A stretch of DNA of 64,000 bases from Burkholderiales bacterium (GCA_014860355.1 JACZJV010000050.1:14733-78732), one strand, 5' to 3'. Positions 47,124 through 64,000 are shown, counted from the first letter of the stretch. Program-made: numbers and translations. Notes: generated from the letters alone by a model not told the origin.

Positions 47124-47201
47124 GGCTGGGTCTTGCCGCAGCCGCGCACCATTCCCCAGTAGACCAGGAACACACCCCAGCCCGCGGCAGCGAGGGCTGC
47201 G

Positions 47202-48194
47202 CTACCTCGGCGGCGTGTACCTGGCGACCAGCTGCTCGATCGCGCCGAACAGGGAATGACCTTCGGCGTCGAGCATTTCGATGCGCACGCGGTCGCCGAA
47301 TTTGAGGAAAGGCGTGAGGGGCTCGCTCGAAGCGATGGTCTCGAGTGCGCGTTTTTCGGCGATGCAGGCCGTGCCTGCGCTCTGATCCGCGTTGGACACT
47401 GTGCCCGAACCGACGATGGTGCCGGCCGCAAGCGGCCTCGTGCCCGCGGCATGCGCGATCAGCCGCGGGAAATCCACGCCCATGTCCACGCCGGCGTTGG
47501 GGCGCCCCAGTTCTTCGCCGTTGACCTGCACCAGCAGCGGCAGGCTCAGCTTGCTTCCATCCCAGGCAGGACCGAGCTCGTCTGGCGTCAGCGCCACCGG
47601 GGAAAAAGCGGAACTGGGCTTGCTCTGAAAGAAACCGAAGCCTTTGGCCAGTTCAGCCGGCGCCAGATTGCGCAGGGACAGGTCGTTGACCAGCATCAGC
47701 AGGCGCACGGATTCGCCCGCCTCTTTTTTCGGCAGGCCCATGGGCACGTCGCCGGTGATTACGGCTATCTCGGCTTCCAGGTCCAGACCCCAGTCTTCGT
47801 TCTCCAGCGGAATATCGTCGCAGGGACCGAGGAAGGCATCGGATCCGCCCTGGTACATCAGCGGATCGCTGCGAAACGACTTCGGCATCTCGGCGCCGCG
47901 CGCCTTGCGCAGTCTCTCGACGTGGCTGATGTAGGCGGAGCCGTCGGCCCACTGATACGCGCGCGGCAGCGGCGAGGCGCACTGCTTCGGATCGAAATCG
48001 AAGGCGCGGCTGCCGGGAGCGCGGTTGAGCGCGTCATAGCGGTCGGTGAGCTGCGGCGAGGCGTAGTTCCAGTCGTCCAGCGCCGCCTGCAGCGTGGGCG
48101 CGATGTCGTCGGCCTTGATTGCGTGCTTGAGATCGCGCGACACCACGATCAGCGTGCCGTCGCGGGTTTCGTCCTTGAGGGTGGCGAGTTTCAT
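47202..48194 (-). CDS. fumarylacetoacetate hydrolase family protein
   Basis: 330 aa. The FAH C-terminal domain has the acidic metal site pattern (LDLEAEIAV...). Confidence 0.85.
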   Translation of the reverse strand: MKLATLKDETRDGTLIVVSRDLKHAIKADDIAPTLQAALDDWNYASPQLTDRYDALNRAPGSRAFDFDPKQCASPLPRAYQWADGSAYISHVERLRKARGAEMPKSFRSDPLMYQGGSDAFLGPCDDIPLENEDWGLDLEAEIAVITGDVPMGLPKKEAGESVRLLMLVNDLSLRNLAPAELAKGFGFFQSKPSSAFSPVALTPDELGPAWDGSKLSLPLLVQVNGEELGRPNAGVDMGVDFPRLIAHAAGTRPLAAGTIVGSGTVSNADQSAGTACIAEKRALETIASSEPLTPFLKFGDRVRIEMLDAEGHSLFGAIEQLVARYTPPR

Positions 48195-48619: not shown

Positions 48620-49435
48620 TCAACGCGCGTCGTTGAGCCTCCAGTCGTAATCGAGGAATTCGAGACCGTAGTCGCCGCGCCGGATCCGCGCCTGCGCCTG
48701 CGGCGTATCTGCCAGGCGCTCGGCGTATCTGGCGAATGTCGCCGTGAGCGAGGCGAAGCCGGCGTGGCCCTGCTCGAAGTCCTTGCCGTACCAGTCGAAC
48801 AGCTCGGATACGAGCAGGGTGTTGCGCTCGGCATCGTAGCGGTTGCGCGTACGGTCGGAGAGGAAGCGGCGCATGCCCTCTTCCAGTTGCGCATCCAGCC
48901 GCTCGGCGCTATAGGCCTCGTCGCGCAGCATCGGGCAGCCGATCGAGGCGCACACCAGCGCAGCGTGGATGCGCGGTTCGTCGAAGGCGCCGGGGGCGCG
49001 GATCATGCCCTGTTCGATGTCGTCGAGATGGCGTTCGCCGCCGAGCAGGACGAAGAACCTGCGTTTCCACGGCGACTGGAACACGCTGCCCAGATCATTG
49101 ATCGACGCGAGCTCCGGGTACCTGGAGAGGATCAGTTCGACGGTGTAGGCGTTATAGGCGTTGATCAGAAACGCGAGCCGCTGCTGCCTGGTCCAGCCGC
49201 GGTACTCCGCCATGCTTACGGCGGACAGGCCCTCCAGATAGGCCTTGAGCCGCTGGTGCTCGGCCTGTACGCCGGCATAGCGCAGCTGCGATGCATTGCC
49301 GCCCTGAATCAGCACCACATTGTCTTTCAGCAGCGCGGTCCACGCCGCGTGACTGTGATCGAAAGCGTGTGCCGTGGCGGCCGTGAGCATGAGGACGAGG
49401 GCGGCGAGCCAGCGCTTCGAGGCTGGCGCCTTCAT
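48620..49435 (-). CDS. secreted DUF547 domain protein
   Basis: ATG 49435 overlaps the upstream stop (ATGA). Signal peptide MKAPASKRWLAALVLMLTAATAHA. INAYNA and HAALVCASIGCP motifs of DUF547. Confidence 0.75.
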   Translation of the reverse strand: MKAPASKRWLAALVLMLTAATAHAFDHSHAAWTALLKDNVVLIQGGNASQLRYAGVQAEHQRLKAYLEGLSAVSMAEYRGWTRQQRLAFLINAYNAYTVELILSRYPELASINDLGSVFQSPWKRRFFVLLGGERHLDDIEQGMIRAPGAFDEPRIHAALVCASIGCPMLRDEAYSAERLDAQLEEGMRRFLSDRTRNRYDAERNTLLVSELFDWYGKDFEQGHAGFASLTATFARYAERLADTPQAQARIRRGDYGLEFLDYDWRLNDAR

Positions 49436-51576
49436 CCGCGCCGCCAGGCGTGGAAGCGCTCCACCCATTCGAGCAGCTTTTGCGGCGCGTGCGCCTTCTT
49501 CCACACGCCCGCCGCATACTTGTTCGCTTCCGCCATGGTCGGGTAGATATGGATGGTGCCGAGGATCTTGTTGAGCCCGATGCCGTGGCGCATCGCCAGC
49601 ACGTATTCGGCGATCAGCTCGCCGGCATGCTCGCCGACGATGGTGACGCCGAGTATGCGGTCCTTTCCGGGTACGGTGAGCACCTTGACGAAGCCGTGGG
49701 CCTCGCCATCGGCGATTGCGCGGTCCAGGTCGTCGATGCCGTAGATGGTCACTTCGTAGGGAATCGCGCGCTCCTTCGCCTCGGTCTCGTTCAGCCCCAC
49801 CCGCGCCGCTTCCGGGTCGACGAAAGTGGCCCAGGGTATGACTGAATAATCGGCGCGGAATTTCTTGAACGGATCGAACAGCGCATTGACCGCCGCGTAC
49901 CAGGCCTGATGCGCCGCCGTATGGGTGAACTGATACGGCCCGGCGACGTCGCCGGCGGCATAGATGTTGGGAAATCTGGTCTGCAGGAATTCGTTCGTCT
50001 CGACCGTGCGCTGCGCCGCGATGCCCAGCTCCTCCAGACCGTAGCCTTGCAGATTCGCGACCCGGCCGACGGCAACCAGCAGCGCGTCGAACGGGATGCG
50101 CACGTCCGCGCCCGCATGTTCGGCGACGAGGATCTTTTCGCCGCCTTCGACGACGAACTGCTTCGCCTTGTGATTGACCAGGACGGCTATGCCTTCGGCG
50201 CGAAAGTGCTGCGCCACCAGTTCGGACACCTCCGGATCCTCGCGGATGAGGATGCGCGGCGCCATTTCCACCTGCGTGACTTCGGCGCCGAGCCGGGCAA
50301 AGGTCTGGGTCAGCTCCGAGCCGATCGGGCCGCCGCCCAGCACCACCAGGCGCCGCGGCAACTGGCGCAGGTCCCACACGGTATCGGAGGTGAGATAGCC
50401 GACTTCCTCGATGCCCGGAATCGGCGGAACGAATGGGCGCGCGCCGGCGGCGATGACGATGGAACGCGTGCTCAGGCGCTCGCGCCCGCCGTCATTGCGC
50501 GTGATTTCCACCTCCCAGGGCGAGACGATTTTTGCCGTGCCTTCGATCACCTCCACGCCGAGTCCGGTATAGCGCTCGGCAGAGTCGTGGGGCGCTACGG
50601 TTTTGATGACGCGTTGCACGCGCTCCATCACCTCGGCAAAGTCAAACTCCGCCCGCGCGTCGCGGATGCCGAATTCAGGCGAACGGCGCATGTGGGCAAG
50701 CAGCCTGGCCGAGCGAATCAGGGCTTTTGAAGGCACGCAACCGGTATTCAGGCAGTCCCCGCCCAGTTTGTGCTTCTCCACCAGCGTGACCTTGGCCTTT
50801 ACCGCGGCAGCGATATACGAGGTGACCAGCCCTGCCGACCCGGCGCCGATCACGATCAGGTTGCGCTCGTAGCGCCGCGGTCTGTTCCAGCCGGCATAGA
50901 CCTTGTTCGTGCGCAGGCGCTCGGTGATTTTCTTGGCCAGCAGCGGAAAAATCCCCAGCAGCGCAAACGACGCCACAATCGCGGGCGAGAGGATGCCGGA
51001 CAAGGACTCGATTTTCGCCAGCTGCGTGCCGGCGTTCACATACACGATCGTGCCCAGCAGCATGCCGGCCTGGCTGACCCAGTAAAAGGTGCGCGTGCGG
51101 ATCGCCGTGAGCCCCATCACCAGGTTGATGACGAAGAAGGGGAACAGCGGCACCAGGCGCAGCGCGAGCAGATAGAAGCCGCCTTCGCGCTCGATGCCGG
51201 CATTGACGGCCTGCAAGCGCTCGCCGAATCGCTGTTGCACCCAGTCGCGCAGCAGGAAGCGCGAGGCGAGGAAGGCGAGCGTCGCGCCTGCCGTGGAAGC
51301 GAATGACACCAGGACCGTTCCCCAGAGCAGGCCGAAAACCGCACCGCCTGCAAGCGTCATTACCGCCGCGCCGGGCAGGGAAAGACCGGTGATCGCGACG
51401 TAGGCGAGGAAGTAGAACAGCGCCGCTTTTGCCGGCTGCGCCGCGCGCCAGGTTTCGATGGCAGCCTGCTGGCTCTTGAAAAAATCCAGACTCAGGTAGC
51501 GACCCAGATCGAAGAAGTAATAGCCGAGCGCGACGCCCAGCAGCACGGCAATCAGTACGAGGCGTTGACGGTTCAT
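49432..51576 (-). CDS. bifunctional TVP38/TMEM64 (DedA-related) membrane protein / class I pyridine nucleotide-disulfide oxidoreductase
   Basis: 714 aa. The N-terminal ~230 aa hold 5-6 TM segments of TVP38 type. The remainder has IGAGSAGL, the redox-active disulfide GGDCLNTGCVPSK, and the C-terminal HIYPTMAE His-Glu motif (mercuric/lipoamide reductase-like). Confidence 0.85.
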   Translation of the reverse strand: MNRQRLVLIAVLLGVALGYYFFDLGRYLSLDFFKSQQAAIETWRAAQPAKAALFYFLAYVAITGLSLPGAAVMTLAGGAVFGLLWGTVLVSFASTAGATLAFLASRFLLRDWVQQRFGERLQAVNAGIEREGGFYLLALRLVPLFPFFVINLVMGLTAIRTRTFYWVSQAGMLLGTIVYVNAGTQLAKIESLSGILSPAIVASFALLGIFPLLAKKITERLRTNKVYAGWNRPRRYERNLIVIGAGSAGLVTSYIAAAVKAKVTLVEKHKLGGDCLNTGCVPSKALIRSARLLAHMRRSPEFGIRDARAEFDFAEVMERVQRVIKTVAPHDSAERYTGLGVEVIEGTAKIVSPWEVEITRNDGGRERLSTRSIVIAAGARPFVPPIPGIEEVGYLTSDTVWDLRQLPRRLVVLGGGPIGSELTQTFARLGAEVTQVEMAPRILIREDPEVSELVAQHFRAEGIAVLVNHKAKQFVVEGGEKILVAEHAGADVRIPFDALLVAVGRVANLQGYGLEELGIAAQRTVETNEFLQTRFPNIYAAGDVAGPYQFTHTAAHQAWYAAVNALFDPFKKFRADYSVIPWATFVDPEAARVGLNETEAKERAIPYEVTIYGIDDLDRAIADGEAHGFVKVLTVPGKDRILGVTIVGEHAGELIAEYVLAMRHGIGLNKILGTIHIYPTMAEANKYAAGVWKKAHAPQKLLEWVERFHAWRRG

Positions 51577-51691: not shown

Positions 51692-52660
51692 TCACTTTGC
51701 GCGCAAATCGCTGTATTGGGACATTTCGGCGATCAATCGGGCGATGGCCGCGCGCTCGGCCGCCGGGTCGACTTCGTGGCGCCGCGCTATTACCGCGGCT
51801 TGCAGTTCGGCTAGCCAGTCCGGGTCGCGCTGGGCGCGCGCGAGTTGCGCCGCCAGCGCGGCCTCGTCCGCGTATGGGTAGTAGCCCGGATAGTCTGCGC
51901 CTAGCAGGCCGATATTGCCGGGGATGGCCGAGGCGATGACGGGCACGCCCGCGGCTATCGCTTCGGATACGACGTGCGCCCCGCCTTCCATGCGGCTCGA
52001 GATGACCATCGCGTGACTGCGCGCCAGCCAGCGCATCGCGCCTGCATGATCGAGTTCACCCAGCCAGCGATAGCGTGGCTCGGCGCGCATCAGCGCGCGT
52101 GCCTGCTGCCCCATTTCAGCCGTCATCGCCTGGCCCAGCTGCACCACGCGGATCGCGCTCTGCGGCAGCTGCGCCAGCGCGAGGGCGGCGCGAAACGGGT
52201 CTTTCTCCTCGCGCAAATGGCCGATCACGGTGACCAGAAAAAAGCTGCGCGGCGGAGTTTGCCGCCGCAGGGCGCGCTGCGACTGGAAAATTACGCTGGT
52301 TTTCGCGCGCTGCGCCGCGCCCAGTTCGTCCAGGCCCAGAGGCTGCAGCACCACCATGCGGTCAGCGAGGCCTAGCGACGCGCGCGCGTCGGCGTCGCTG
52401 CGTATGTCGCGGTACAAATCGGTGCCGGTGAGCACCAGGACCAAAGGACGCTGCGGGTGCGTCGACTTCCACGCCTTCATCGCCGCGTGGCTGCGGCGCG
52501 CATGCAGGGCAATGAGCAGCTCGCAATCGCGCCCGTCCCAATCGAGCGCAAGCTGCGTCACGTGCCCGAGCGCGCGCAAATGCCGCGCCCAGCGCAGCGC
52601 GGTATTGCGGTTGCCCTGGCGCGAACCCGGCGCGGCGGGCGTTACAATGAGTATGCGCAT
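51692..52660 (-). CDS. senB: GT-B glycosyltransferase of the selenosugar synthase (SenB) type
   Basis: 322 aa. The N-terminus MRILIVTPAAPGSRQGNRNTALRWARHL matches my memory of the selenium-neighbourhood glycosyltransferase family later named SenB. A GT1 C-terminal E-x7-E-like region is present (SRMEGGAHVVSEAIAAGVPV). Divergent from an EgtB-like gene. Confidence 0.75.
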   Translation of the reverse strand: MRILIVTPAAPGSRQGNRNTALRWARHLRALGHVTQLALDWDGRDCELLIALHARRSHAAMKAWKSTHPQRPLVLVLTGTDLYRDIRSDADARASLGLADRMVVLQPLGLDELGAAQRAKTSVIFQSQRALRRQTPPRSFFLVTVIGHLREEKDPFRAALALAQLPQSAIRVVQLGQAMTAEMGQQARALMRAEPRYRWLGELDHAGAMRWLARSHAMVISSRMEGGAHVVSEAIAAGVPVIASAIPGNIGLLGADYPGYYPYADEAALAAQLARAQRDPDWLAELQAAVIARRHEVDPAAERAAIARLIAEMSQYSDLRAK

Positions 52661-52736: not shown

Positions 52737-53939
52737 ATGAGAGACAATATAGCAGAGCCGTCGCCGCGCGCCGGCTGGCCCGATTTTTCGCTCTACCGGC
52801 CGCATCCGCCGGCAGCCCGACTGCGCGCCTGGCTGGTCGAGGCGCACGACCTGAGCTCGTTGCTGACGCAGTTCCTCGGCGACGAAACCATTGTCGTTCC
52901 GCTGCTGCCGATCGTCAATCCGCCGCTGTGGGAACTCGGTCACATCGCCTGGTTCCAGGAGTTCTGGCTGCATCGCGGCGGGGATTTTTCCCGGCCCTCG
53001 ATGCTGCGCGACGCGGATCGCTGGTATGACTCGGCGCGCGTCGCGCACGACACGCGTTGGTCCCTGGACCTGCCCGACGCACAGGCGACGCGGGGCTATG
53101 TCGAAGGAGTGTATAAGCGTACGCTGGCTTTGTTCGAGCGCGAATCACCGGGCGACGCGCGCGCGTACTTTACCCAGCTGGCGATCTTTCACCAGGACAT
53201 GCACAACGAGGCCTTCTGCCACATGTGGCAGACGCTCAGTTACCGGATGCCGCTAGCCTGGGCGCAAGCGGATGCAGCGGACGCAGCCGATCTGGAGCTT
53301 CCCGCAGGCAGGTTTGCGCTCGGGGCTAGCCGCGGCTCGGGCTTCGTATTCGACAACGAAAAATGGGCGCACGAGGTGGACTTGCGCGACTATGCGATTG
53401 CGCGCCGTGCGGTGAACAACGCCGAGTACCGCGCATTCGTCGAAGCGGGCGGCTACGCCCGGCGCGAATTATGGAGCGAGGCCGGTTGGGCCATGCGCGA
53501 GCGTTTGGCACTGGCGCATCCGCGCTACTGGAGGCGCGCTGCGCAGGGCTGGTCGGTGCGCCGCTTCGATCGCTGGGTGCCGCTGGCGGAGCACGAACCG
53601 GTGATGCACGTGAGTTGGTATGAGGCCGAGGCCTATTGCGCCTGGGCCGGCCGGCGCCTGCCGAGCGAGGCGGAATGGGAACGCGCCGCGGCAACCTGCC
53701 CCGATCGCTTTGACAGCGGCCGGGTCTGGGAATGGACTTCCAGCCGTTTCGCTCCCTATCCGGGCTTCACTGCCGACCCCTACAAGGAATACTCGGAGCC
53801 CTGGTTTGCCGACGAGCATCGCGTGTTGCGCGGCGGCAGCTTCGCCACGCCGCCGCGGCTGCTGCGCAGGACCTGGCGCAATTTCTACGCGCCCGCGCGA
53901 GCGGACATGTTCTGCGGATTTCGCAGCTGCGCGCTCTGA
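52737..53939 (+). CDS. senA: EgtB-like DinB_2 + FGE-sulfatase-domain C-S/C-Se bond-forming enzyme (selenoneine synthase SenA type)
   Basis: In-frame ATG 52737; the ORF part upstream overlaps senB. The iron triad is WELGHIAWF plus FHQDMHNE (H, HxxxHxE). The FGE-like C-terminal domain has RLPSEAEWE and RGGSF. Confidence 0.75.
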   Translation: MRDNIAEPSPRAGWPDFSLYRPHPPAARLRAWLVEAHDLSSLLTQFLGDETIVVPLLPIVNPPLWELGHIAWFQEFWLHRGGDFSRPSMLRDADRWYDSARVAHDTRWSLDLPDAQATRGYVEGVYKRTLALFERESPGDARAYFTQLAIFHQDMHNEAFCHMWQTLSYRMPLAWAQADAADAADLELPAGRFALGASRGSGFVFDNEKWAHEVDLRDYAIARRAVNNAEYRAFVEAGGYARRELWSEAGWAMRERLALAHPRYWRRAAQGWSVRRFDRWVPLAEHEPVMHVSWYEAEAYCAWAGRRLPSEAEWERAAATCPDRFDSGRVWEWTSSRFAPYPGFTADPYKEYSEPWFADEHRVLRGGSFATPPRLLRRTWRNFYAPARADMFCGFRSCAL

Positions 53940-53942: not shown

Positions 53943-54029
53943 CCGGGCAGTGTAGCCGGCGCGCGTGCGCCGCATGCAAGGTATACTGCTTTCCCGCGGT
54001 GCAATTCGACCGCGTAGCTACACGGTCCG
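53943..54029 (+). other. structured senA-phnD intergenic leader (possible three-way junction)
   Basis: Outer helix 53943-53956 / 54017-54029 (12 pairs, one mismatch, one G-U) encloses hairpins 53957-53972 (6 bp, GCGU loop) and 53995-54014 (6 bp). Confidence 0.25.
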
Positions 54030-54078
54030 CCGCGGCGGCCCTTGGTACACCATCCAACATTCTCCGGAGTACGTCTAC

Positions 54079-54936
54079 ATGAGCGCTATCTTCCGCATTT
54101 TGGCCCTTGTGCTGTTCGGCTTGTCCTTTGCGCATGGCACTGCAGCCCAGGGCGTGCTCAGGGTATCCGCCATACCCGACGAAGCGCCGACCGAGCTGCA
54201 GCGCAAGTTCAAGCCGCTGGGCGAATATCTCGCGCAGGAAACCGGCATGAAGGTCGAGTTCACCCCGGTGAGCGACTACGCCGCAGTGGTCGAATCGCTG
54301 GCCACGAAGAAACTCGACCTCGCCTGGCTGGGGGGATTCACCTTCGTACAGACCAAGCTGCGCACCAAGGGCAGCGCCATACCCATCGTGCAGCGCGCCG
54401 AGGACGAAGTATTCACCAGCCGCTTCATCGTGCCCTCCGGCAGCAAGGCCAAGACCCTGGCCGATCTCAAGGGCAAGACCTTTGCCTTCGGTTCGCCCTC
54501 ATCGACCTCCGGACACCTGATGCCGCGCTATTTCCTGCTGCAGGCGGGCATCGATCCGGACAAGGATTTCAAGAACGTTGCGTTCTCGGGCGCGCACGAT
54601 GCGACGGTGGCATTCGTGGCCGGCGGCAAGGCCGAAGCCGGCGTGCTCAACGCCTCGGTCTGGGACAAGCTGGTGCAGGCAAAGAATCCCAACGCGCTGA
54701 AGGTCAGGGTGCTCGCGACCACGCCGCCCTATTTCGACTACAACTGGACCGTGCGCGGCGACCTGGACCCGGCCCTGGTGAAAAAGCTCACCGCCGCCTT
54801 TCTCAAGCTCGACCCGGCCAATCCGGCGGATAAGGCGATACTGGACCTGCAGCGCGCATCCAAGTTCATTCCGACCAAGGCGTCGAACTACGACGGCATC
54901 GAGAATGCCGCCAAATCGGCCGGCCTGATCAAATGA
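54079..54936 (+). CDS. PhnD-family ABC transporter periplasmic substrate-binding protein
   Basis: Internal ATG; signal peptide MSAIFRILALVLFGLSFAHGTAAQ. PhnD-type fold markers (LRVSAIPDE, FGSPSSTSGHLMPR). Confidence 0.8.
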   Translation: MSAIFRILALVLFGLSFAHGTAAQGVLRVSAIPDEAPTELQRKFKPLGEYLAQETGMKVEFTPVSDYAAVVESLATKKLDLAWLGGFTFVQTKLRTKGSAIPIVQRAEDEVFTSRFIVPSGSKAKTLADLKGKTFAFGSPSSTSGHLMPRYFLLQAGIDPDKDFKNVAFSGAHDATVAFVAGGKAEAGVLNASVWDKLVQAKNPNALKVRVLATTPPYFDYNWTVRGDLDPALVKKLTAAFLKLDPANPADKAILDLQRASKFIPTKASNYDGIENAAKSAGLIK

Positions 54937-54977
54937 CCCGACGCAGGTCTGCGCGCTGAATCGATGGAGCGCCTTGC

Positions 54978-55847
54978 GTGAGCTTTGAGCTCGACCGCAT
55001 AGGCTTGATACATTCCAACGGCCAGGCGCAGGGTCAACGGGCTTTGCGTGCGGTGTCGATCAGCGCCGCGCGCGGCGAGCGCCTGGCGATCATCGGCCCT
55101 TCCGGTGCGGGCAAGACTACGCTGCTGCGCATACTCGCCACTTCGATCCGTCCTACCGAGGGACGCGTCAGCGTGCTCGGTACGAATCCCTGGCAGCTTA
55201 GCAGCAGAGAGCTCAGGCGCCTGCGCAGCGGCGTCGGATTCATCCACCAGGCGCCGCCGATACCGCCGCGCCAGCGCGTGATTACCGCAGTGATCGCCGG
55301 GCGCCTGGGCCAGTGGCCCTGGTGGAAATCGGCGCTGTCGCTGATCTACCCGGCCGACATCGCCGGTCCGCGCGAGCAACTGGCGCGCCTGGATCTCGCC
55401 GACCGCCTGTTCGATCGCTGCGACCGGCTCTCCGGCGGGCAGCTGCAGCGCGTCGGAGTGGCGCGCGTGTTGTACCAGCGCCCGGATTTGCTGCTGGCGG
55501 ACGAACCGGTTTCGGCCATGGATCCTGCGCTCGCCGATCTCACCGTGGGCCAGCTGCACGCCGAAGCGCAAAGCCGCGGGGTCACGCTGGTCGCCAGTCT
55601 GCACGCGGTGGACATAGCGCTGCGCTGGTTCCCGCGCGTGATCGGACTCAAAGCGGGTGAGCTCGTATTCGACCTGCCGCCTGCGAAGGTGAGCGAGAGC
55701 GTGCTGCGCGACCTCTATGCCTCCGAAACCGGCGTGTTGCCCTCGCAGGACAATCAGCCGTTCCATGCGTCGTTCGAGGGATATGCCACGGACGACACCC
55801 CGGGCGGCAGCGGGCAGGTCCCGCTCGCGCCGCCGCGCGTGATTTGA
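54978..55847 (+). CDS. phnC: phosphonate-type ABC transporter ATP-binding protein
   Basis: GTG start. Walker A GPSGAGKTT, signature LSGGQLQRV, Walker B LLLADEP. Confidence 0.9.
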   Translation: MSFELDRIGLIHSNGQAQGQRALRAVSISAARGERLAIIGPSGAGKTTLLRILATSIRPTEGRVSVLGTNPWQLSSRELRRLRSGVGFIHQAPPIPPRQRVITAVIAGRLGQWPWWKSALSLIYPADIAGPREQLARLDLADRLFDRCDRLSGGQLQRVGVARVLYQRPDLLLADEPVSAMDPALADLTVGQLHAEAQSRGVTLVASLHAVDIALRWFPRVIGLKAGELVFDLPPAKVSESVLRDLYASETGVLPSQDNQPFHASFEGYATDDTPGGSGQVPLAPPRVI

Positions 55848-55859
55848 TTCCCTTGCGCC

Positions 55860-56696
55860 ATGTCATCTGGTTTGCAACCCCCGCAGCTGCGTGATCCGGA
55901 TGCACCCAGGCGGGCTGGCTGGGTGCTGCTTGCGCTGCTGGTGTTGTGGCCGCTCATGCAGATCGCCGAATTCCGTCCGTCCGACTTGTTCGACGCGCGC
56001 AACCTCGAGGTGATGGGCGGCTTCCTCGGGCAGTTCTTTCCGCCGAATATGAGCGGCGATTTTCTCGCCTACGCGCTCAAGGCGACCATAGAGACGCTGG
56101 CGATGGCGACCGCCGGCATCGCGCTCGCGATGTTGCTCGCGCTGCCGCTGGGCCTGGTGCTCACGCACAGCCTCTCGGTTTCGCGCATCGGCCCCGGGTC
56201 GGGTCGCGGCGCGGGCGAGGCGGTGCGTGCGGCCGCGCGCGCGACGCTGCTGATACTGCGCGGCATACCCGAACTGGTCTGGGCCCTGCTGCTGGTGCGC
56301 GCTTTCGGGCTGGGGCCGGCCGCTGGTGTGCTGGCCATCGCGCTCACCTACGGCGGTATGCTGGGGAAGGTCTATTCCGAGATACTGGAATCCGGCGATA
56401 CGCGCCCCGCGCGCGTGCTGCTCGAATCCGGCAGCGGCCGCCTGATGGCGTTCTTTTACGGACTGTTGCCGGGGGCCGGACAGGAGCTGGCTTCCTACAC
56501 CATCTATCGCTGGGAGTGCGCGGTGCGTGCTTCGGTGATCATGGGCTTTGTCGGCGCCGGCGGCCTCGGGCAGTTGATGGACCAGTCGATGAAAATGCTC
56601 AACGGCGGCGAGGTCTCGACCATCCTGATCATATTCCTGCTGCTGGTGCTGCTCGCCGACGCGCTCAGCGTTTTTCTGAGGAAGCTGCTCGCATGA
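55860..56696 (+). CDS. phnE: PhnE-type ABC transporter permease
   Basis: 278 aa, 6 TM segments, PhnE-like IPELVWALLLV segment. Confidence 0.85.
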   Translation: MSSGLQPPQLRDPDAPRRAGWVLLALLVLWPLMQIAEFRPSDLFDARNLEVMGGFLGQFFPPNMSGDFLAYALKATIETLAMATAGIALAMLLALPLGLVLTHSLSVSRIGPGSGRGAGEAVRAAARATLLILRGIPELVWALLLVRAFGLGPAAGVLAIALTYGGMLGKVYSEILESGDTRPARVLLESGSGRLMAFFYGLLPGAGQELASYTIYRWECAVRASVIMGFVGAGGLGQLMDQSMKMLNGGEVSTILIIFLLLVLLADALSVFLRKLLA

Positions 56697-56724
56697 GCAC
56701 GGCAGCTCGCCTCGAGCTGAGCCC

Positions 56725-57537
56725 GTGAGCACCGCGACTTTTGCCGAGCGGCGCGCGGCCATGGGCTTTTGCCTGCAGTGCTGGCTGACGCTGTTGCTGC
56801 TGGCCTTGCTCGTCTGGGCCAGCTTCGCCTATCTGGCGCTGGATTTGTCGCGCTTGTTCAGCCTGGAATCGGGCCGCGGCATGCTGCAGTTCATCCTGCG
56901 CTTTTTTCCGCCCGATACCAGCGCGCAGTTCCTGCGCAAGATCGCCGGGGCCACGCTCGAAACCCTGGCCATATCCGCGATCGGCACGCTGCTCGCCGCG
57001 GGCGCCGGACTGCTGCTGGCGCTGCCGGCGGCGGGTCGTCTGGGTCCGGTGTTCAAAGCGCTGACCCGCTTTCTCCTCAACGCCCTGCGCTCGGTGCCCG
57101 AACTCGTGTGGGCGGCATTGATGGTGCTGGCTGCAGGGCTGGGGCCTTTCGCCGGCACGCTCGCCCTGGCATTGCACACCTCGGGGGTGCTGGGGCGACT
57201 CTACGCGGAGAGCCTGGAAAATGCGCCGCCCGAGCCGGCACAGTCTCTGGTGGAAAGCGGTGCGCCGCCGGCGCTGGCCTTCGGCTACGCCACGCTGCCC
57301 TTGATCGCGCCGCAGCTGCTCTCCTACAGCCTGTACCGCTGGGAGATGAACATCCGCATGGCCACGGTGCTGGGCTTCGTCGGCGCCGGCGGCCTGGGGC
57401 AGATGCTCTACTACGAGCTGTCGCTGCTGCACGAAGCGCAGGCCTCGAGCGTCATCTTCGCCATGCTCGCATTGGTGGTGTTCGTCGACGCGGCGAGCGC
57501 CTGGGTGCGCCGCCGCCAGATGCGCGCGGGCGGATGA
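56725..57537 (+). CDS. phnE: PhnE-type ABC transporter permease (second)
   Basis: GTG 56725 (ATG 56761 is the alternative). Paralogous to the preceding permease (VPELVWAALMVL). Confidence 0.8.
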   Translation: MSTATFAERRAAMGFCLQCWLTLLLLALLVWASFAYLALDLSRLFSLESGRGMLQFILRFFPPDTSAQFLRKIAGATLETLAISAIGTLLAAGAGLLLALPAAGRLGPVFKALTRFLLNALRSVPELVWAALMVLAAGLGPFAGTLALALHTSGVLGRLYAESLENAPPEPAQSLVESGAPPALAFGYATLPLIAPQLLSYSLYRWEMNIRMATVLGFVGAGGLGQMLYYELSLLHEAQASSVIFAMLALVVFVDAASAWVRRRQMRAGG

Positions 57538-57555: not shown

Positions 57556-58776
57556 CTAATCCGCGAGGCGGGTCGGGATGCTGATTTCGGCGTGCAGCGT
57601 TCGATGTACCGGACACTTATTGGAGATCTCCAGCAGCTTGGCGCGCTGCTCCTCGCTCAAGGGGCCTTCCAGCCGTATCAGCCGCTCGATGCGGTCGACC
57701 TTGCCCTCCCTGGTTTCGCATTCCGCGCAATCTGCCGCGTGAATTTTGTCGTGTCTTAGCTCGACAGTGGCGCGCTCCAGCGGATAGCCCTTGAGATCGG
57801 CATACATGCGCATGGTCATCGAGGTGCACGCGCCGAGACCGGCGAGGAGCAGGTCGTAGGGCGAAAGTCCGCTGTCCAGGCCGCCGGCCGCGACCGGCTC
57901 GTCCGCGCGGATCACATGCTGCCCGACGAGCACGCGCTGACTGAATTTGCCCTCGCGGGTTTCCTGCACCACCACCTTGCCGGGCACCGCAGACGCAGCG
58001 GTGGCCGCCGTGGCGCCGAGGTAGCGCATCGCCCAGGATGCCAGGATGCTGCCGGTGTACAGCGCGTCCTCGCGCCGCGACAGCATGTGGTCGGCCGGAT
58101 CGAGGGAAACAAAACTCTTCGGGTGTTTCGCCGTGGTAAAGATCCGCGTTGCATTGTCGATGCCGACTACGCTGTCGCGCGGCGTATGCATGACCAGCAG
58201 CGCCTTGCCCATGTGCGCGAGTTTGTCGCCGAGCTTGCTGCCCGAGATGTCGTCCAGGAACTGCCTGCGTATGCGAAAGGGACGCTCGCCGATGTCGACT
58301 TCGGCCTCGCCTTCGCGCTCGATCGCGGACTTGTCCTTGATCAGCTGCAGCACATGCGCCGGATCGATAGGCGAGCCTATGGTCGCCACCGCGACCGCTT
58401 CGGGCACGCGCGCCGCTGCGGCGAGGACCGCGGTGCCGCCGAGGCTGTGGCCGACCAGGAGTGCGGGCGCGCTATAGTGCTGGCGCAGGTAGTCTGCTGC
58501 AGACACCAGGTCCTCCAGGTTCGAAGAAAAATTCGTGCTGGCAAAATCCCCGCCGCTGCCGCCCAGACCGGTGAAGTCGAAGCGCAGCACCGCGATGCCG
58601 CGCTCGGCCAGCGCCGCACTGACGTAAGTCGCGGCCTTGCTTTCCTTGGAGCAGGTAAAGCAATGCGCGAACAGGGCGTAGGCGATCGGCGCCGCTGACG
58701 GCGGCAGGTCGAGGCGCGCGGCGAGCAGGGCGCCTATGGCGCCGGGAAAGGAAAGCGTAAGCGACTGTATGGTCAT
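57556..58776 (-). CDS. bifunctional alpha/beta hydrolase / OsmC family protein
   Basis: 406 aa. The N-terminal half has the nucleophile elbow GHSLGG. The C-terminal ~140 aa has OsmC-type Cys pairs (GLGACTSMT ... NKCPVH). Confidence 0.85.
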   Translation of the reverse strand: MTIQSLTLSFPGAIGALLAARLDLPPSAAPIAYALFAHCFTCSKESKAATYVSAALAERGIAVLRFDFTGLGGSGGDFASTNFSSNLEDLVSAADYLRQHYSAPALLVGHSLGGTAVLAAAARVPEAVAVATIGSPIDPAHVLQLIKDKSAIEREGEAEVDIGERPFRIRRQFLDDISGSKLGDKLAHMGKALLVMHTPRDSVVGIDNATRIFTTAKHPKSFVSLDPADHMLSRREDALYTGSILASWAMRYLGATAATAASAVPGKVVVQETREGKFSQRVLVGQHVIRADEPVAAGGLDSGLSPYDLLLAGLGACTSMTMRMYADLKGYPLERATVELRHDKIHAADCAECETREGKVDRIERLIRLEGPLSEEQRAKLLEISNKCPVHRTLHAEISIPTRLAD

Positions 58777-58819: not shown

Positions 58820-59794
58820 CTAGATCGCCGCGTGGCACAGCGCGAACCAGTCGTTCGCGTCGGTCCACGCCTGGATGCGGTCAAAGCCGGCGCGCGCCAG
58901 CAGCGTCTTGAAATCAGTCAGCGCGTACTTGTAGCTGTTCTCCGTATGGATGCGCTGGCCCTGGCGAAATGCGCGTGTGCCGCCGGGCCAGCGCACGCTG
59001 AGGTCGTGCCTGGCCTCCAGGTGCATTTCGATGCGCGAGGCTGCGGTGTTGAACTGCGCCCGGTGGCGCCAGTCGCGCACGGCGAAATCGCTGCCGATCA
59101 GCGCATTCACGTTGTTGAGCAGGTTCAGGTTGAATGCCGCGGTGACCCCGAGCGCGTCGTCGTAGGCAGTCTGCAACAGGGTTTCGGACTTGAGCAGATC
59201 GACGCCGATCAGCAGGCCGCCGCCATGGGGGCCTGCGCACTGCGCCCGTATGCCGGCAAGGAAAGCGAGCGCCTGCTCCGGCGTGAAGTTGCCGATCGAT
59301 GAGCCGGGGTAGAAGAACAGGCGCTTGTCGCGGCTGACCGCATCGGGCAGGCGCAGGCCCGAGGAGAAATCGGCGCCGATGCCGAGCATTTCCATCTGCG
59401 GAAACTCACGCTGCAGCTGCGACATCGACTGCCGCAGATAATCCACGGAGATGTCCACTGCGACATACTGGCTCGGCCGCAGCGCAGCAAACAGGCTGCG
59501 CGCCTTTTCGCAATTGCCCGCGCCGAGGTCGATCAGCGCCGGCGCGGGGCCGGCGGCGCGCGCCACGCTGTCGCGGCAGGCTAGGAGCAGCGCTTTTTCC
59601 GTGCGCGTCGGATAGTATTCGGGCAGTTCGGTAATGGCATCGAACAGGCGCGAGCCCAGCGCGCCATAGAGGTGCTTGAACGACACCCATGGCGCGTCTG
59701 CCATCAGTCCCGCCACGATCGCGGCGGCCTCCGCGCCCGGCGCAAGCGCATCGGCGGGAAACGAAAAGAATGTCGGGCCGGATTGCAGCGTCAT
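58820..59794 (-). CDS. egtD: L-histidine N(alpha)-methyltransferase (hercynine synthase)
   Basis: 324 aa. FDAITELPEYYPTRTE, DLGAGN, YDDALGVTAAFNLNLL, RIEMHLEA and ENSYKY blocks match mycobacterial EgtD as I recall it. Confidence 0.9.
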   Translation of the reverse strand: MTLQSGPTFFSFPADALAPGAEAAAIVAGLMADAPWVSFKHLYGALGSRLFDAITELPEYYPTRTEKALLLACRDSVARAAGPAPALIDLGAGNCEKARSLFAALRPSQYVAVDISVDYLRQSMSQLQREFPQMEMLGIGADFSSGLRLPDAVSRDKRLFFYPGSSIGNFTPEQALAFLAGIRAQCAGPHGGGLLIGVDLLKSETLLQTAYDDALGVTAAFNLNLLNNVNALIGSDFAVRDWRHRAQFNTAASRIEMHLEARHDLSVRWPGGTRAFRQGQRIHTENSYKYALTDFKTLLARAGFDRIQAWTDANDWFALCHAAI

Positions 59795-59862: not shown

Positions 59863-60825
59863 TTAGCGGTCCCGCTTCAAAGAACTGCCGTCTCCGGCAT
59901 GGAACACCGCGGTGTGCGGGTTGAACGCGTACCAGGCGAACCAGTAGCCGACCACCGCCGGAAGCTGCCGCCCATCGGCGGCGTGGGCCGTGGCGCGCGC
60001 AGCCTGGCGGTCGAAGCGGATGGTCAGCGCAGTGTCACCTATCCGGTCGGACACCACGCCGGTCGTTTTCCCCAATTCGACGAAGGGATACGCCTTGGTC
60101 TGTTCGCCTATCCTGATACCGAGCACCCGTTCCTTGGGATGAAAGCCCGCAGAGCGGAACGCCACCGGGAACATGATGTCCTCGCTGCTCTCATATCCGG
60201 CGTAGGGGTCGCGCGCGTAAGGTCGCGTCTGCCCGGTATTGGTAGTCAGAACCCCGGTCGCCGGGTGTAAGCTGCGCCAGTCGGCCCAGCTGGTATGGGT
60301 CAGCGGCAGCAGCTTCAGGCGCCGACCTTTCTTCGGGCCGCTGACCGCCTGCGCCAGCAACTGCGACCACAGCGACTGTGTCTGCCGGTCGTACAGCAGC
60401 ACGTCGCTGTTGTAGAGCAGTCCGGAGACGCCGAAGCTGAGCACCTGACCATCGACGCTGGCATCGAAGGCCGCGCCGGTGCCGCACAGCGGACAGAAAG
60501 TGATCACCACCGCCTCCGCGCCGAAACGGTCGTTGACCACTTCGTGCCAGTTGAGTATGCGCACCGGATAGGCGCGCGCGATGCCCTTGCGCACCATGCC
60601 GAGTACGGCGTCATCGTCGCGCAGGAAAGTCGCAAGCCCTGCCTCGGTGAATTCGGGCTGGTCGATCGCGGGTATGCCGTCCCTGGGCGGTCCGCCTGCG
60701 TGGATCTCGTCGCTGGCGATCAATGATCCCTGCAGGTCGAAGCCGTTCATCTGCTGCGCGTAGGAGAGGACCGGCGCGAGGCCGGCGAGCAGGGCGAAGT
60801 ATGATACCAGGCGTCGAAATCTCAT
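59863..60825 (-). CDS. secreted DUF3179 domain protein
   Basis: Internal ATG (MRFRRLVSYFALLAGLAPVLSYAQQ signal peptide). PRDGIPAIDQP, FCPLCGTG and LLYNSDVLLYDRQT motifs of DUF3179. Confidence 0.8.
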   Translation of the reverse strand: MRFRRLVSYFALLAGLAPVLSYAQQMNGFDLQGSLIASDEIHAGGPPRDGIPAIDQPEFTEAGLATFLRDDDAVLGMVRKGIARAYPVRILNWHEVVNDRFGAEAVVITFCPLCGTGAAFDASVDGQVLSFGVSGLLYNSDVLLYDRQTQSLWSQLLAQAVSGPKKGRRLKLLPLTHTSWADWRSLHPATGVLTTNTGQTRPYARDPYAGYESSEDIMFPVAFRSAGFHPKERVLGIRIGEQTKAYPFVELGKTTGVVSDRIGDTALTIRFDRQAARATAHAADGRQLPAVVGYWFAWYAFNPHTAVFHAGDGSSLKRDR

Positions 60826-60937
60826 TCGTCCTCCAGACACATGTCGGGTGCGGATCTGTTTGTCGCAACCAGGCTAGCGTTTCTTACGCCGACTGAGGGT
60901 GCAGGTAATCCGGACCCAGCCGGTTGATGCAATGGCC

Positions 60938-61612
60938 CTAGGTAGGCGGCCGGCGCAACCGGTCGCGCACGAGTTTCACCGCGAACGGGATCAGGGTAAT
61001 GGCACCCAGTGCCAGCACCGATATCATGATCTGATCGGACTCACCGGTGGCCATCTCGCCGCCGAAATGGGCCAGCAGAAAGCTCGCCGGTACGATGCCG
61101 ATGAGCGTCGCGAGCGCGAAGCGCCAGAACGAGAGCACCGTCAGGCCCGCGGCATAGCTCACAATATCGAAGGATATGAACGGCAGGAGACGGCTGACCA
61201 GCACGATACCCATGAGCGTGTTTTGCGATCCGAGCAGGCCCAAGGACAATCGCTCGCCGAACCAGCGCCGCATGGTGTCCCCGCCGAGCCAGCGTGCCAG
61301 GCCGAAGGCGGTGATCGCGCCGATCTCCGCGCCCACGAGCACATAAAGCGTGCCCCAGACATGGCCATACGCGGCGCCGGCAGCCATGGCGATGGGTGCA
61401 CTCGGAATCGGGCTCACCATGATTGCCAGCACCATCAGGCCGATCACCAGCAGCGGGCCCCATGCCCCCAGGCGCGCAATGTGATCGTGCAGTTCGGCCC
61501 GGTTCAGGATGGTCGCCAAGGCGCCGGTTTCGTGCAACAGCCAGTAGGTCGCTGCCAGCAGCGCCAGCAGCGCGAGTACGGCGAGCAGTTTGAACCGCAG
61601 CGACTGCGTCAC
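60938..61612 (-). CDS. TVP38/TMEM64 family (DedA-related) membrane protein
   Basis: GTG 61612 overlaps the SelD-fusion stop (GTGA). 224 aa, 5-6 TM segments, MVSPIPSAPIAMAAGAAYG core. The rest of the 758-aa track ORF is antisense to the SelD fusion gene. Confidence 0.75.
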   Translation of the reverse strand: MTQSLRFKLLAVLALLALLAATYWLLHETGALATILNRAELHDHIARLGAWGPLLVIGLMVLAIMVSPIPSAPIAMAAGAAYGHVWGTLYVLVGAEIGAITAFGLARWLGGDTMRRWFGERLSLGLLGSQNTLMGIVLVSRLLPFISFDIVSYAAGLTVLSFWRFALATLIGIVPASFLLAHFGGEMATGESDQIMISVLALGAITLIPFAVKLVRDRLRRPPT

Positions 61613-63894
61613 GCGCCCAGCCTGAGGACGATAGGCGCCAGCGCTTCGCCCTGCGCGAGCACCCGGCCGATGGCCGCAGCATGCGTGTATCCGAGCGCGT
61701 GCAGGGCGCCGAGGCAGGCCTCGGCGCGCTCCCCGGGGACGCTGGCGAGCAGCCCACCTGCTGTCTGCGGGTCGAAGATCAGCGCATAGCGCGGATGGCT
61801 CAGCGCCTCCTGCTGGTTGCGCAGCGCGCGGCGCAGGCGCACGTTTGCCGGCTGCAGCGAACTCAGGATGCCGGCGGCGCTGGTTTGCTCCGCGCCTTCC
61901 AGTACGGGCAGCGACGCGAGGTCGAGTTCCGCGTCCACGCCCGAGGGGCGTGTCATTTCGACCAGGTGTCCGAGCAAACCGAAGCCGGTCAGATCGGTGC
62001 AGGCGGTCGCGCCGTGCTCGCGCAGACACTGCGCGCCCAGGCGGTTCGATTGGCACATCGAGGCGAGCGCCGCATCGATCCAGCGGCCACGGGCCGCGAG
62101 CAGGGCATGCGCCGCAAACAGCGTACCGGTGCCGATAGGCTTGGTCAGGATCAGGACGTCGCCGGCTCGCATGCCGCTCTTGCGCAGCACCGGCGCCAGG
62201 TTCTCGTCTATCAAGCCGTTCACGGCAAAGCCCAGCGCCAGTTCCTTGCCCTCGCCGGTGTGCCCGCCCACGAGCGCGCAGCCGGCGTCGTTGAGCACTT
62301 CGATCGCGCCCGACATCATCTGAAACAGCAGGTCCTCCTGCTTGGCCTCCAGGCCGGCGGGCACGGTGACGATCGCGGTGGCCGACTGCGCCTCGGCGCC
62401 CATCGCGTATATGTCGCCCAGGGCGTGATTGGCCGCGACCTTGCCGAAGATGTAGGGATCGTCGATGAAGGCGCGGAAGAAATCCACCGTGTGTACCATG
62501 GCCTTGCCCGGCGGCACGCGCACCACCGCCGCATCGTCGGGCGCATGCAGTCCGATGAGCACGTCGTCGCGCGCTACCGGGACTAGCGCGCCGAGCGCGC
62601 GCGAGAGCACGGTGGCGCCGACTTTCGCGCCGCAGCCGCCGCAGCGCATCGCCACTGCCGAGATCGCCTGCGCGGCCTCCTCCTGGTCGAGTTTGATCGG
62701 CGAGGGCGTCGCATGGGCGGGCCCGGCCTGCATTGCGGGAAACTGCTCGAATTTGTGCATGAAGCGGCGGTCGATCCAGTCCTTCCAGCGCCACACCCAG
62801 TCGCCGCGCAATGCCAGCGCAGCGCGCGAGGCCACGGCGTAGCGATCGCCGGTGCTGATCAGTGCCAGCCAGCGTGTTTGCGGGCGGTAGGGCCTCAATG
62901 GCCTGCCTTCCACAGCGCGGCGCAGATTCTCTGCGAGCGGCTTGCCCTGGCGCACGGCGAATACCCCGGCTTTCTCCAACGGCTGGTTCACCATGCCGGC
63001 GATATCGCCCGCGGCAAACACCTTTGGATCGCTCACGGTCTGCAGCGTGTCGCCGACCTGAATGAATCCATCCGCATCGAGTGCGAGGCCGGTTCCGGCG
63101 AGCCAGGGTGCGCCGCCGGCACGCGTGACCCAGACGATCTCGTCGGCATCCACCGACATGCCGGCCGTAGTCTGCAGGCGCGTCGCGGATACCTGGTTGA
63201 CCTCGGCCTTGCAATGCAGTTCGACACCGCGCTCGGCCAGCACGCGTTCGAATGTACGGCGCACCGAAGCATTGTGGGTTTTCAGGATCACCGGGCCGCG
63301 CGTCAGCAGGTGGAAGCTGAGTTCGTCCGGATTGCGCCCAGCCGCGCGCAATTCCTTGCGCAATCGGTATTGCATGGCCAGAGTCAACTCGACCCCGCCG
63401 GCGCCGCCGCCGACCACGGCGATGCGCGTGGCCCCGGCGTGCCGGCGCACGCGCTCGAGCAGCAGCAGCCAGCGCTGGTTGAATCCATTGATCGGTTTGA
63501 CCGGCACTGCGTGCTCGCTCGCACCCGCCACATCGGCCATTTGCGGCGTGGAGCCGATGTTGATCGACAGGTAGTCGTAGGGCACCGGCGGACGATTGCG
63601 GCAGAGGACTTTGCCCGCGTCGCGGTCCAGGCCCAGTGCTTCATCGTGAAAGTAGCGCGCGCCGGCAAAGCGAGCCAGCCTCGACAGATCGATGTGGACT
63701 TCGTCGTAGCTGTAGTGTCCGGCGATGTACCCCGGCAGCATGCCGGAGTAGGGTGTGTGGGTGTCGCGGCAGATGAGCGTCAGGCGGACCCCGGGCACGG
63801 GATGCATGCCGAAGCGCTTGAGCACGACTACATGGCTGTGGCCACCGCCGACCAGGACGATATCCCTGAGTACCGGCTGATCCGGCGATAGCAT
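61609..63894 (-). CDS. selD: bifunctional NDH-2-like FAD/NAD(P) oxidoreductase / selenide, water dikinase
   Basis: 761 aa. The N-terminal ~400 aa has VLVGGGHSHVV and VVGGGAGGVE dinucleotide folds. The C-terminal part has SelD motifs MRCGGCGAKVG (Cys form, no in-frame TGA), GDIYAMGA and LVGGHTGEG. Confidence 0.9.
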   Translation of the reverse strand: MLSPDQPVLRDIVLVGGGHSHVVVLKRFGMHPVPGVRLTLICRDTHTPYSGMLPGYIAGHYSYDEVHIDLSRLARFAGARYFHDEALGLDRDAGKVLCRNRPPVPYDYLSINIGSTPQMADVAGASEHAVPVKPINGFNQRWLLLLERVRRHAGATRIAVVGGGAGGVELTLAMQYRLRKELRAAGRNPDELSFHLLTRGPVILKTHNASVRRTFERVLAERGVELHCKAEVNQVSATRLQTTAGMSVDADEIVWVTRAGGAPWLAGTGLALDADGFIQVGDTLQTVSDPKVFAAGDIAGMVNQPLEKAGVFAVRQGKPLAENLRRAVEGRPLRPYRPQTRWLALISTGDRYAVASRAALALRGDWVWRWKDWIDRRFMHKFEQFPAMQAGPAHATPSPIKLDQEEAAQAISAVAMRCGGCGAKVGATVLSRALGALVPVARDDVLIGLHAPDDAAVVRVPPGKAMVHTVDFFRAFIDDPYIFGKVAANHALGDIYAMGAEAQSATAIVTVPAGLEAKQEDLLFQMMSGAIEVLNDAGCALVGGHTGEGKELALGFAVNGLIDENLAPVLRKSGMRAGDVLILTKPIGTGTLFAAHALLAARGRWIDAALASMCQSNRLGAQCLREHGATACTDLTGFGLLGHLVEMTRPSGVDAELDLASLPVLEGAEQTSAAGILSSLQPANVRLRRALRNQQEALSHPRYALIFDPQTAGGLLASVPGERAEACLGALHALGYTHAAAIGRVLAQGEALAPIVLRLGA

Positions 63895-64000
63895 CGCGAA
63901 CTTCCTTTCAAGGACGGCGCGCCGCGTGGAATTACGGGCGCATATGATGCGCGCGGGCGGGCCGACTCAGTCCGCGTCTTTTTCGAGCACCTCGGGGATT

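Follow-up and report, generated by a model that had tools for sequence, protein, structure and literature searches.

A flavoprotein-SelD fusion as the predicted SenC of an extended selenoneine cluster in a Burkholderiales bacterium

A gene joining a flavoprotein to selD

The window analyzed here is a 64,000-nucleotide stretch of DNA from an uncultured Burkholderiales bacterium (GCA_014860355.1, JACZJV010000050.1:14733-78732). Its minus strand carries at 61609..63894 a gene, with an ATG start and a TGA stop, in which a flavoprotein, a linker and a Cys-type SelD (selenophosphate synthetase) are joined in one 761-aa protein that is predicted to take the SenC role in selenoneine synthesis. The flavoprotein half comprises residues 1-385 (62740..63894) and the SelD domain residues 416-761 plus the stop codon (61609..62649). 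The inter-domain linker (residues 386-415; 62650..62739) falls between the two family models, is poorly conserved, and has the lowest per-residue confidence (predicted local distance difference test, pLDDT) in the predicted structure. The GC content at third codon positions (GC3) is 0.84, on par with that of the adjoining genes, and the sequence GAAAGGAAG lies immediately 5' of the ATG.

Pfam places Pyr_redox_2 at residues 11-304 (E=6.7e-28), AIRS at 453-561 and AIRS_C at 576-749. The NCBIfam model TIGR03169 (Nterm_to_SelD) matches residues 11-382 over the full model length with 528.5 bits against a cutoff of 310, and TIGR00476 (selD) reaches 298.5 bits (cutoff 125). The protein also aligns to a sister model, TIGR04369 ('fusion_not_SelD'), but the 467 bits fall short of the cutoff of 700, which places the protein with the true SelD type. 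An earlier note, made from the sequence alone, had reported a single 761-aa frame joining a flavoprotein to a Cys-type SelD, with the motifs GGGHSH, GGGAGGVE and MRCGGCGAKVG. The Pfam and NCBIfam matches confirm the frame and both of its halves, and all three motifs are present in the translation (at residues 16-21, 162-169 and 416-426, respectively).

More than 8000 full-length homologs are present among sequences clustered at 90%, the closest of them 96% identical, and those of the closest 120 that have a named source derive from Burkholderiales or Betaproteobacteria metagenome-assembled genomes. This number of full-length homologs, which include 80 loci from distinct genomes, rules out an assembly or frameshift artefact as the origin of the fusion, and the gene is a real one and a member of the established Ndh-SelD fusion family. 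The loci compared below are designated L001-L160 (scan loci) and L161-L166 (SenB-context loci).

The flavoprotein half

TIGR03169, phmmer and Foldseek agree in assigning residues 1-385 to a family with the fold of NDH-2, and phmmer matches this half to YjlD (9pxk; 1.7e-17) and to the C. thermarum NDH-2 (4nwz; 4.6e-16). Conservation was evaluated in 151 sequences, namely 150 representatives at 50% identity and the window sequence. In the FAD dinucleotide-binding motif GGGHSH (63832..63849) residues G16, G18 and H19 do not vary and H21 is kept in 97% of sequences, and in the NAD(P)H dinucleotide-binding motif GGGAGGVE (63388..63411) G162, G164 and E169 are invariant. The FAD 'GD' motif (FAAGD; family form FAxGD) is invariant, as are both dinucleotide motifs in their GxGxxG form. 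The conserved features of this half are GGGHxH, PYSGMLPG..AG.Y, K133-P134, GxGxxGxE, FAxGD and K308.GVxAVR315, together with N323, P338-Q339 and W368..K371..I374-D375. From these patterns the flavoprotein half is probably catalytically competent.

NDH-2 enzymes (4nwz, YjlD 9pxk and S. aureus 5na1) share with the window protein the two-Rossmann fold, the sheet and first helix of the C-terminal part, the binding motifs for FAD and NAD(P)H, and a helix with the pattern K..ID, at an identity of only 17-24%. The quinone site is where they part. The motif AQxAxQ is defining for NDH-2, and in its place the fused protein has GVFAVR (residues 310-315; 62950..62967), which aligns to AQIAIQ of 4nwz and to AQIAWQ of YjlD; G310, V311, A313, V314 and R315 are 99-100% conserved, so that the family form GVxAVR lacks the NDH-2 motif and brings in an Arg. 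The Glu that in NDH-2 closes the second strand of the NADH-binding fold, and is a mark of NADH specificity, is T197 in the window protein, and relatives have Ser, Thr or other non-acidic residues here; a non-acidic residue at the end of that Rossmann strand permits the use of NADPH. A Trp- and Arg-rich amphipathic helix, WVWRWKDWIDRRF (residues 365-381), is conserved and aligns with the first NDH-2 C-terminal helix, which carries the quinone-site Ile, with K371, I374 and D375 matching K376, I379 and D380 of 4nwz. After this helix the chain enters the poorly conserved linker and then SelD, instead of the remaining C-terminal membrane region of NDH-2. The alignments thus suggest an acceptor pocket that has probably been kept and given a new lining.

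A search of residues 1-400 for conserved cysteines found no column with Cys in more than 50% of sequences, in either fused or stand-alone members of the family. We therefore rejected a mechanism of the glutathione reductase (GR), thioredoxin reductase (TrxR), MerA or sulfide:quinone oxidoreductase (SQR) type for the N-terminal half. The MerA and GR models score it far under their cutoffs, with intrinsic CxxxxC or CxxC motifs absent, and the SQR_III model gives 39 bits against a cutoff of 525. SQR (A. ferrooxidans 3sz0/3t31; A. aeolicus 3hyv) is a related flavoprotein fold that acts on a chalcogenide, but it oxidises rather than reduces, and its catalytic cysteines have no conserved equivalent in the window protein. 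We infer that the flavoprotein half is neither a quinone reductase nor a disulfide reductase in its own right.

The SelD half and a fusion-specific CxxC

The C-terminal half matches E. coli SelD (3u0o) with an E-value of 9.2e-45, and C421 and K424 align with its Cys17 and Lys20. The catalytic position is therefore occupied by Cys and not by Sec, as the earlier note had stated. The ATP and metal ligands are likewise present: D454, D471, D494, D634 and N489 correspond to E. coli D51, D68, D91, D227 and N87, and in the family alignments the four aspartates never vary and N489 is retained in at least 90% of sequences. It is well supported by these residues that this half would act as an ordinary ATP-dependent selenophosphate synthetase.

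The catalytic loop CGGCGAK (C418-x-x-C421...K424; 62623..62643) contains a second cysteine, C418, three residues ahead of the catalytic one, and 87-88% of the fused representatives have both C418 and C421. No unfused SelD examined, these being V. paradoxus SenC, the proteins of L161 and L163, and E. coli SelD, has this CxxC. A survey of ocean metagenomes reported the same association, with CxxC in the SelD active site of all Ndh-SelD fusions and in fewer than 5% of single-domain SelDs (PMC2398784). The window protein agrees with the published family (Zhang 2008; Zhang & Gladyshev 2008; Mariotti 2015) in having the extra domain N-terminal, a Cys catalytic site and the CxxC, and shows no structural difference from it.

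Predicted structure

An AlphaFold2 model of the whole chain (761 residues), run on a 104-sequence alignment in replacement of a single-sequence run (pLDDT 35), has a mean pLDDT of 89.0 and a predicted TM-score (pTM) of 0.89. The less confident regions are residues 301-320 (pLDDT 67-74) and 381-430, which span the linker and the CxxC loop (55-71). A pTM of 0.89 for two domains of ~370 residues implies a defined mutual arrangement in the model, so that the packing of the domains is confidently predicted and the linker and CxxC loop are its flexible parts. Foldseek finds the N-terminal half closest to the NDH-2 fold (YjlD and C. thermarum NDH-2; target-normalised TM 0.83-0.88 over ~387 columns, rmsd 2.4-3.0 A), with SQR second (target-normalised TM 0.72-0.79), and the C-terminal half matches solved SelD structures with TM 0.78-0.85. 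No entry containing both halves was found by Foldseek in the PDB.

An extended selenoneine cluster

In the sen pathway described by Kayrouz et al. and reconstituted for V. paradoxus, SenC (a SelD) forms selenophosphate, SenB uses this to make a selenosugar, and SenA joins the selenosugar to hercynine made by EgtD (10.1101/2022.04.13.486033). Counterparts of the other three enzymes are all encoded near the fused gene. The selenoneine synthase SenA (52737..53939, plus strand) scores 503.6 bits with NF041186 (cutoff 420), the selenosugar synthase SenB (51692..52660, minus strand) 403 bits with TIGR04348 (cutoff 300), and the histidine N-alpha-methyltransferase EgtD, for hercynine (58820..59794, minus strand), 362 bits with TIGR03438 (cutoff 291). 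Beside senA is a four-gene ABC importer (53965..57537, plus strand) with a binding protein (53965..54936), an ATPase (54978..55847) and two permeases (55860..56696 and 56725..57537). With TIGR04553 ('putative selenate ABC transporter substrate-binding protein') the first of these scores 372.8 bits (cutoff 250), and the ATPase and permeases are PhnC/PhnE-like. The fused gene lies 7.7 kb from the end of senA with only selenium- or hercynine-related genes between them, and this synteny is kept in full in L001. Because it is the only selD found within the annotated 39.9-64 kb of the window, the fused gene would take the SenC role, and the surroundings are predicted to be an extended selenoneine (sen) cluster comprising SenA, SenB, a putative selenate importer, EgtD, and the fusion as SenC. 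The selenometabolite context asserted in the earlier note is thus upheld by four proteins above curated cutoffs.

The fused gene is followed on the same strand by genes for a 224-aa VTT/TVP38 membrane protein of the DedA superfamily (60938..61612; PF09335, 83.8 bits), a DUF3179 protein with a signal-peptide-like N-terminus (59863..60840; PF11376, 306.6 bits), EgtD, and finally an alpha/beta-hydrolase fused to an OsmC-like (peroxiredoxin) domain (57556..58776; Pfam OsmC and Hydrolase_4). The first two genes of this array overlap in a GTGA, with the selD TGA at 61611..61609 and the VTT GTG at 61612..61610, and the VTT gene has no alternative start codon ahead of its first transmembrane helix; the GTGA given in the earlier note is thus real. 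The gaps that follow are 97, 68 and 43 nt. A VTT ortholog lies directly 3' of fused selD in L001, L005 and L009, and divergent VTT genes adjoin in L002, L006, L012 and L014. The DUF3179 gene is near fused selD in 3 of the 80 genome loci, closest relatives only, and the hydrolase-OsmC gene in six (L001, L002, L008, L014, L015 and L043); the latter protein resembles NF041052, 'OsmC-related (seleno)protein', only weakly, at 51 bits where the cutoff is 95.

The fusion had also been said to head this array. It is the first biosynthetic gene, but it is probably not the first gene of the unit, as a co-directional gene cut by the window edge (63967..64000, minus strand) ends 72 nt upstream of its ATG. 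The last 11 codons of that gene (63967..63999) encode IPEVLEKDAD*, which matches the C-terminus KIPEVLEKYGD* of an anti-sigma factor in L001. There, at 9163..9935, a 67-aa HxxxCxxC anti-sigma factor (NF052368, 63.9 bits against a cutoff of 50) is preceded by an ECF sigma factor (TIGR02943). A sigma gene upstream of fused selD recurs in about four to five related loci, and the ECF sigma/anti-sigma pair suggests thiol- or redox-responsive control of the cluster.

Directly 3' of senB is a further flavoprotein gene (49432..51576, minus strand), encoding a 714-aa protein in which a VTT domain (VTT_dom, residues 71-184) is fused to a class-I (CxxxxC) pyridine-nucleotide disulfide oxidoreductase (Pyr_redox_2, 239-558; Pyr_redox_dim, 580-688; motif GGDCLNTGCVPSK). 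This protein, and not the one fused to SelD, is the GR/MerA-like flavoprotein of the cluster, and it is under the cutoff of every named NCBIfam model. Of the 160 scan loci, 16 have an ortholog (more than 60% identity) no farther than 10 kb from fused selD, and none was found in the six SenB-context loci, where selD, if within the stretch, is unfused. With a gene fusion on the senB side and the GTGA coupling at selD, the cluster combines a VTT domain and a flavin reductase at two places. The prevailing view of VTT/DedA proteins today is that they transport lipids or polyprenyl phosphates. For this reason a DedA-family protein implicated in how Ralstonia metallidurans takes up and resists selenite (Ledgham 2005, as described in PMC3836016 and PMC11422209) would be only a lead, by analogy, toward a role of VTT proteins in selenium entry.

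Distribution of the fusion

The genome sample consists of 80 species-representative genomes with a full-length fusion (71-89% identity), and a metagenome sample is more diverse (N-domain 43-85% identical). In the fetched flanks of the 80 genome loci SenB is found in 39-40 and SenA in 28-29. Of the 39 genome loci whose flanks reach 5 kb or more on each side, 24 carry senA, senB or both beside fused selD; the metagenome loci, counted from 3 kb of flank upward, give 11 of 26. Spot checks of SenB matches all passed TIGR04348 (4/4; 402-431 bits). Fused SelD is therefore a frequent SenC, and about half of the related fused loci adjoin senB or senA. The hosts seen belong to Burkholderiales, Halomonadaceae and similar groups with an aerobic or facultative way of life. 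Culturable hosts in which senA/senB adjoin fused selD include Aquisalimonas lutea (L016), Halomonas flagellata (L070) and Billgrantia azerbaijanica (L074).

Other contexts are also related to selenium. An XdhC/CoxI gene lies ~21 nt 3' of fused selD in L042 (3083..4081, confirmed with Pfam) and in two further loci as judged by sequence clustering. XdhC is a maturation factor of molybdenum hydroxylases, and this adjacency links the fusion to the selenium-dependent molybdenum-hydroxylase trait as well.

Searched on its own, the N-terminal half finds 10,668 homologous clusters (50% identity) at E≤1e-3, of which 2,408 reach E≤1e-30. We scanned for stand-alone versions in the metagenome search with an alignment of 16 short representatives; SelD is fused in 68 of 70 loci with enough sequence 3' of the N-domain, so that many representatives that appear to stand alone may be fragments. 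Genuine stand-alone homologs were obtained twice, in L124 and L120. The one in L124 (region 2497..8586) lies between selB and selA.

A search for SenB, which returned only close relatives, identified minimal sen cassettes in L161 (5633..8957), L163 (5552..8969) and L165 (856..3244), with SenB proteins 69-73% identical to that of the window. The contig of L165 breaks off within the gene next to senA, so that the SelD type could be read only in L161 and L163.

A proposed role for the flavoprotein half

Zhang et al. (2008) described SelD fused to a COG1252 NADH-oxidoreductase homolog and proposed a role for the flavoprotein in reducing a selenium compound that SelD then uses. An ocean-metagenome survey reported hundreds of Ndh-SelD fusions, amounting to about 40% of Cys-type SelDs (PMC2398784), and in the study of Mariotti et al. 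(2015) Ndh-SelD is by far the commonest SelD fusion, with protist copies acquired by horizontal transfer (PMC4561486). The earlier note was accordingly right that the architecture is known from comparative genomics and that the flavoprotein half has no assigned function, TIGR03169 still being listed by NCBIfam as a 'hypoth_equivalog_domain'. Its own mechanism, in which the flavoprotein reduces a selenium species and hands it to SelD, is not new, since it restates the 2008 prediction; it is plausible, and partly supported by the sequence and model features described here. Both the fusion family, of which the gene is a new member, and this kind of cluster were already known. Published surveys tie the fusion to the use of Sec and selenouridine, and the published fusion papers that we searched make no mention of a link to selenoneine clusters.

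We regard it as about evenly balanced whether the fusion is a bifunctional SenC, in which the FAD domain uses NAD(P)H to reduce selenium held on the CxxC and the SelD domain phosphorylates it, feeding SenB. The SelD/SenC part is well supported by homology and conserved catalytic residues, and the reductase part is our reading of the sequence. Selenate or selenite would enter through the ABC importer and possibly the VTT proteins, and oxidised selenium would be delivered by the importer, the coupled VTT protein and the VTT-disulfide-reductase fusion. On reacting with thiols, the selenium could be loaded onto C418 and C421 as a selenotrisulfide, perselenide or selenenylsulfide. The N-terminal half would be a soluble or peripheral FAD enzyme taking hydride from NAD(P)H, possibly NADPH, with the re-lined acceptor pocket holding a selenium species that is reduced in place of the quinone. 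The flavin's redox partner would then be C418-x-x-C421 on the mobile SelD loop, some 30 residues past the last helix of the flavoprotein. Selenium reduced in place to Cys-bound Se(-II) could be phosphorylated without release of free HSe-, and the selenophosphate would pass to SenB for selenosugar formation and on to SenA, which with hercynine from EgtD would yield selenoneine.

A flavoprotein lacking conserved cysteines, a CxxC restricted to fusions, and a tether of ~30 residues would together point to the loop as the flavin's most economical redox partner, a partnership that would refine the 2008 idea without proving it. Fitting such a role are the invariant FAD and NAD(P)H motifs, the CxxC, the re-lined quinone motif, the predicted domain packing (pTM 0.89), the stand-alone homolog of L124, and the adjoining genes for selenium uptake and reduction. 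The chemistry would have a precedent in the flavoenzymes GR and TrxR, which reduce selenite and GS-Se-SG to selenide (PMC5187540). GR and TrxR, NifS-SelD fusions and selenocysteine lyases have been proposed to follow the same logic of supplying reduced selenium to SelD (PMC5187540; PMC4561486); GR and TrxR, however, work in trans with redox-active Cys or Sec pairs of their own, whereas the window flavoprotein has no conserved Cys and is tethered to SelD. A broader scheme, which we put forward tentatively and hold to be somewhat doubtful, is a 'split' selenium reductase in which the Cys-less NDH-2-like flavoprotein borrows the CxxC of the SelD loop and, together with the VTT protein, the VTT-disulfide-reductase and the importer, makes up a self-contained line from oxyanion to selenophosphate that supplies selenoneine synthesis, the VTT proteins serving in selenium entry or hand-over.

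Several observations weigh against a bifunctional SenC. The unfused selD genes of L161 and L163 encode 349-aa proteins with HGGGCGCK that are 32-33% identical to the window SelD domain, so that clusters with closely related SenB proteins differ in SelD type, either being paired with SenB, and selenoneine synthesis as such can do without the flavoprotein half. For comparison, the SenC of V. paradoxus DSM 30034, which shares the pathway role, the companions (SenA, SenB and EgtD homologs) and the SelD catalytic residues, is likewise unfused, with about 350 aa, HGGGCGCK and 33% identity to the window SelD domain; the window enzyme differs in its extra 385-residue flavoprotein and CxxC loop. The quinone-site helix is kept (K371, I374 and D375), so that the acceptor may be lipophilic, and the stand-alone homolog of L120 (region 1152..3517), which overlaps a transglutaminase-like gene, lacks any neighbour related to selenium. 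The curated sister fusion TIGR04369 suggests that the flavoprotein can also partner a domain other than SelD. A 2026 review considers the selenium donor that serves SelD in vivo to be incompletely elucidated (PMC13188914), and neither a biochemical study of the fusion nor any reference to a fused SenC turned up in our literature searches, which did not extend to subscription-only text (including the Nature article of Kayrouz et al.).

Alternative explanations

The strict tie between the CxxC and the fusion would also be accounted for if the flavoprotein served to maintain SelD, keeping C418 and C421 reduced by reversing disulfides or selenenylsulfides in aerobic cells while selenide came from GSH/GR or Trx/TrxR. 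The absence of cysteines in the flavoprotein makes the SelD loop its obvious redox partner here too. The fusion is common in aerobic and aquatic bacteria, at ~40% of ocean-metagenome Cys-SelDs (PMC2398784), with aerobic or facultative hosts in our samples, and the sigma/anti-sigma pair of L001 hints at thiol-stress control. Such maintenance differs from the bifunctional SenC only in what sits on the cysteines. Unfused Cys-SelDs such as V. paradoxus SenC work in aerobes with no such partner, and the selenium import genes that co-localise with the fusion suggest a supply role; we consider maintenance rather unlikely. The flavoprotein fold has its closest solved relatives among NDH-2 enzymes, and together with the conserved amphipathic helix at residues 365-381 and the translationally coupled membrane VTT gene this could instead indicate a true NDH-2-type membrane enzyme that exchanges electrons with quinone and docks on the membrane beside the VTT or ABC transporters, the fusion serving localisation or respiratory coupling. 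This is improbable given that AQxAxQ is swapped for GVxAVR with its invariant Arg, that a linker and SelD occupy the position where the C-terminal membrane region of NDH-2 would continue, and that quinone exchange gives no reason for the co-variation of the CxxC.

We give very little probability to a flavoprotein whose substrate is sulfur or some other compound, or which converts surplus selenide to Se(0) as SQR oxidises sulfide, with the fusion reflecting co-regulation or detoxification. SQR is the second-closest fold and one SQR structure (3sz0) was solved with selenide bound, and both the L120 context and the TIGR04369 fusion would be in keeping with a substrate unrelated to SelD. However, the cysteines essential to SQR have no conserved counterpart, SelD is fused in nearly all of the metagenome loci counted above (68/70), and the contexts are overwhelmingly selenium-related (sen, selA/selB, XdhC).

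The bifunctional SenC bears on a long-standing question, the source of reduced selenium for SelD in vivo, in a fusion that is very widespread. As the predicted SenC of a pathway reconstituted in vitro, the fusion offers a direct assay of the flavoprotein's role; V. paradoxus SenC was assayed with Na2Se and DTT by 31P-NMR (10.1101/2022.04.13.486033), and sister clusters in nature that have or lack the flavoprotein half can serve as built-in controls. If correct, the bifunctional SenC would show how aerobes avoid free HSe-, which is toxic and oxygen-labile, and would aid the engineering of selenoneine production from cheap selenite or selenate.

Other features of the window

Scans of the window found no Rfam family, only a tRNA-Gly (26987..27055) and no tRNA-Sec among tRNA genes, and promoter and terminator signals at background level. 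On the far side of the cluster, the genes at 39916..48194 look unrelated to selenium and encode an AMP-binding enzyme, an EamA transporter, a penicillin amidase, a PHB depolymerase and a fumarylacetoacetate hydrolase.

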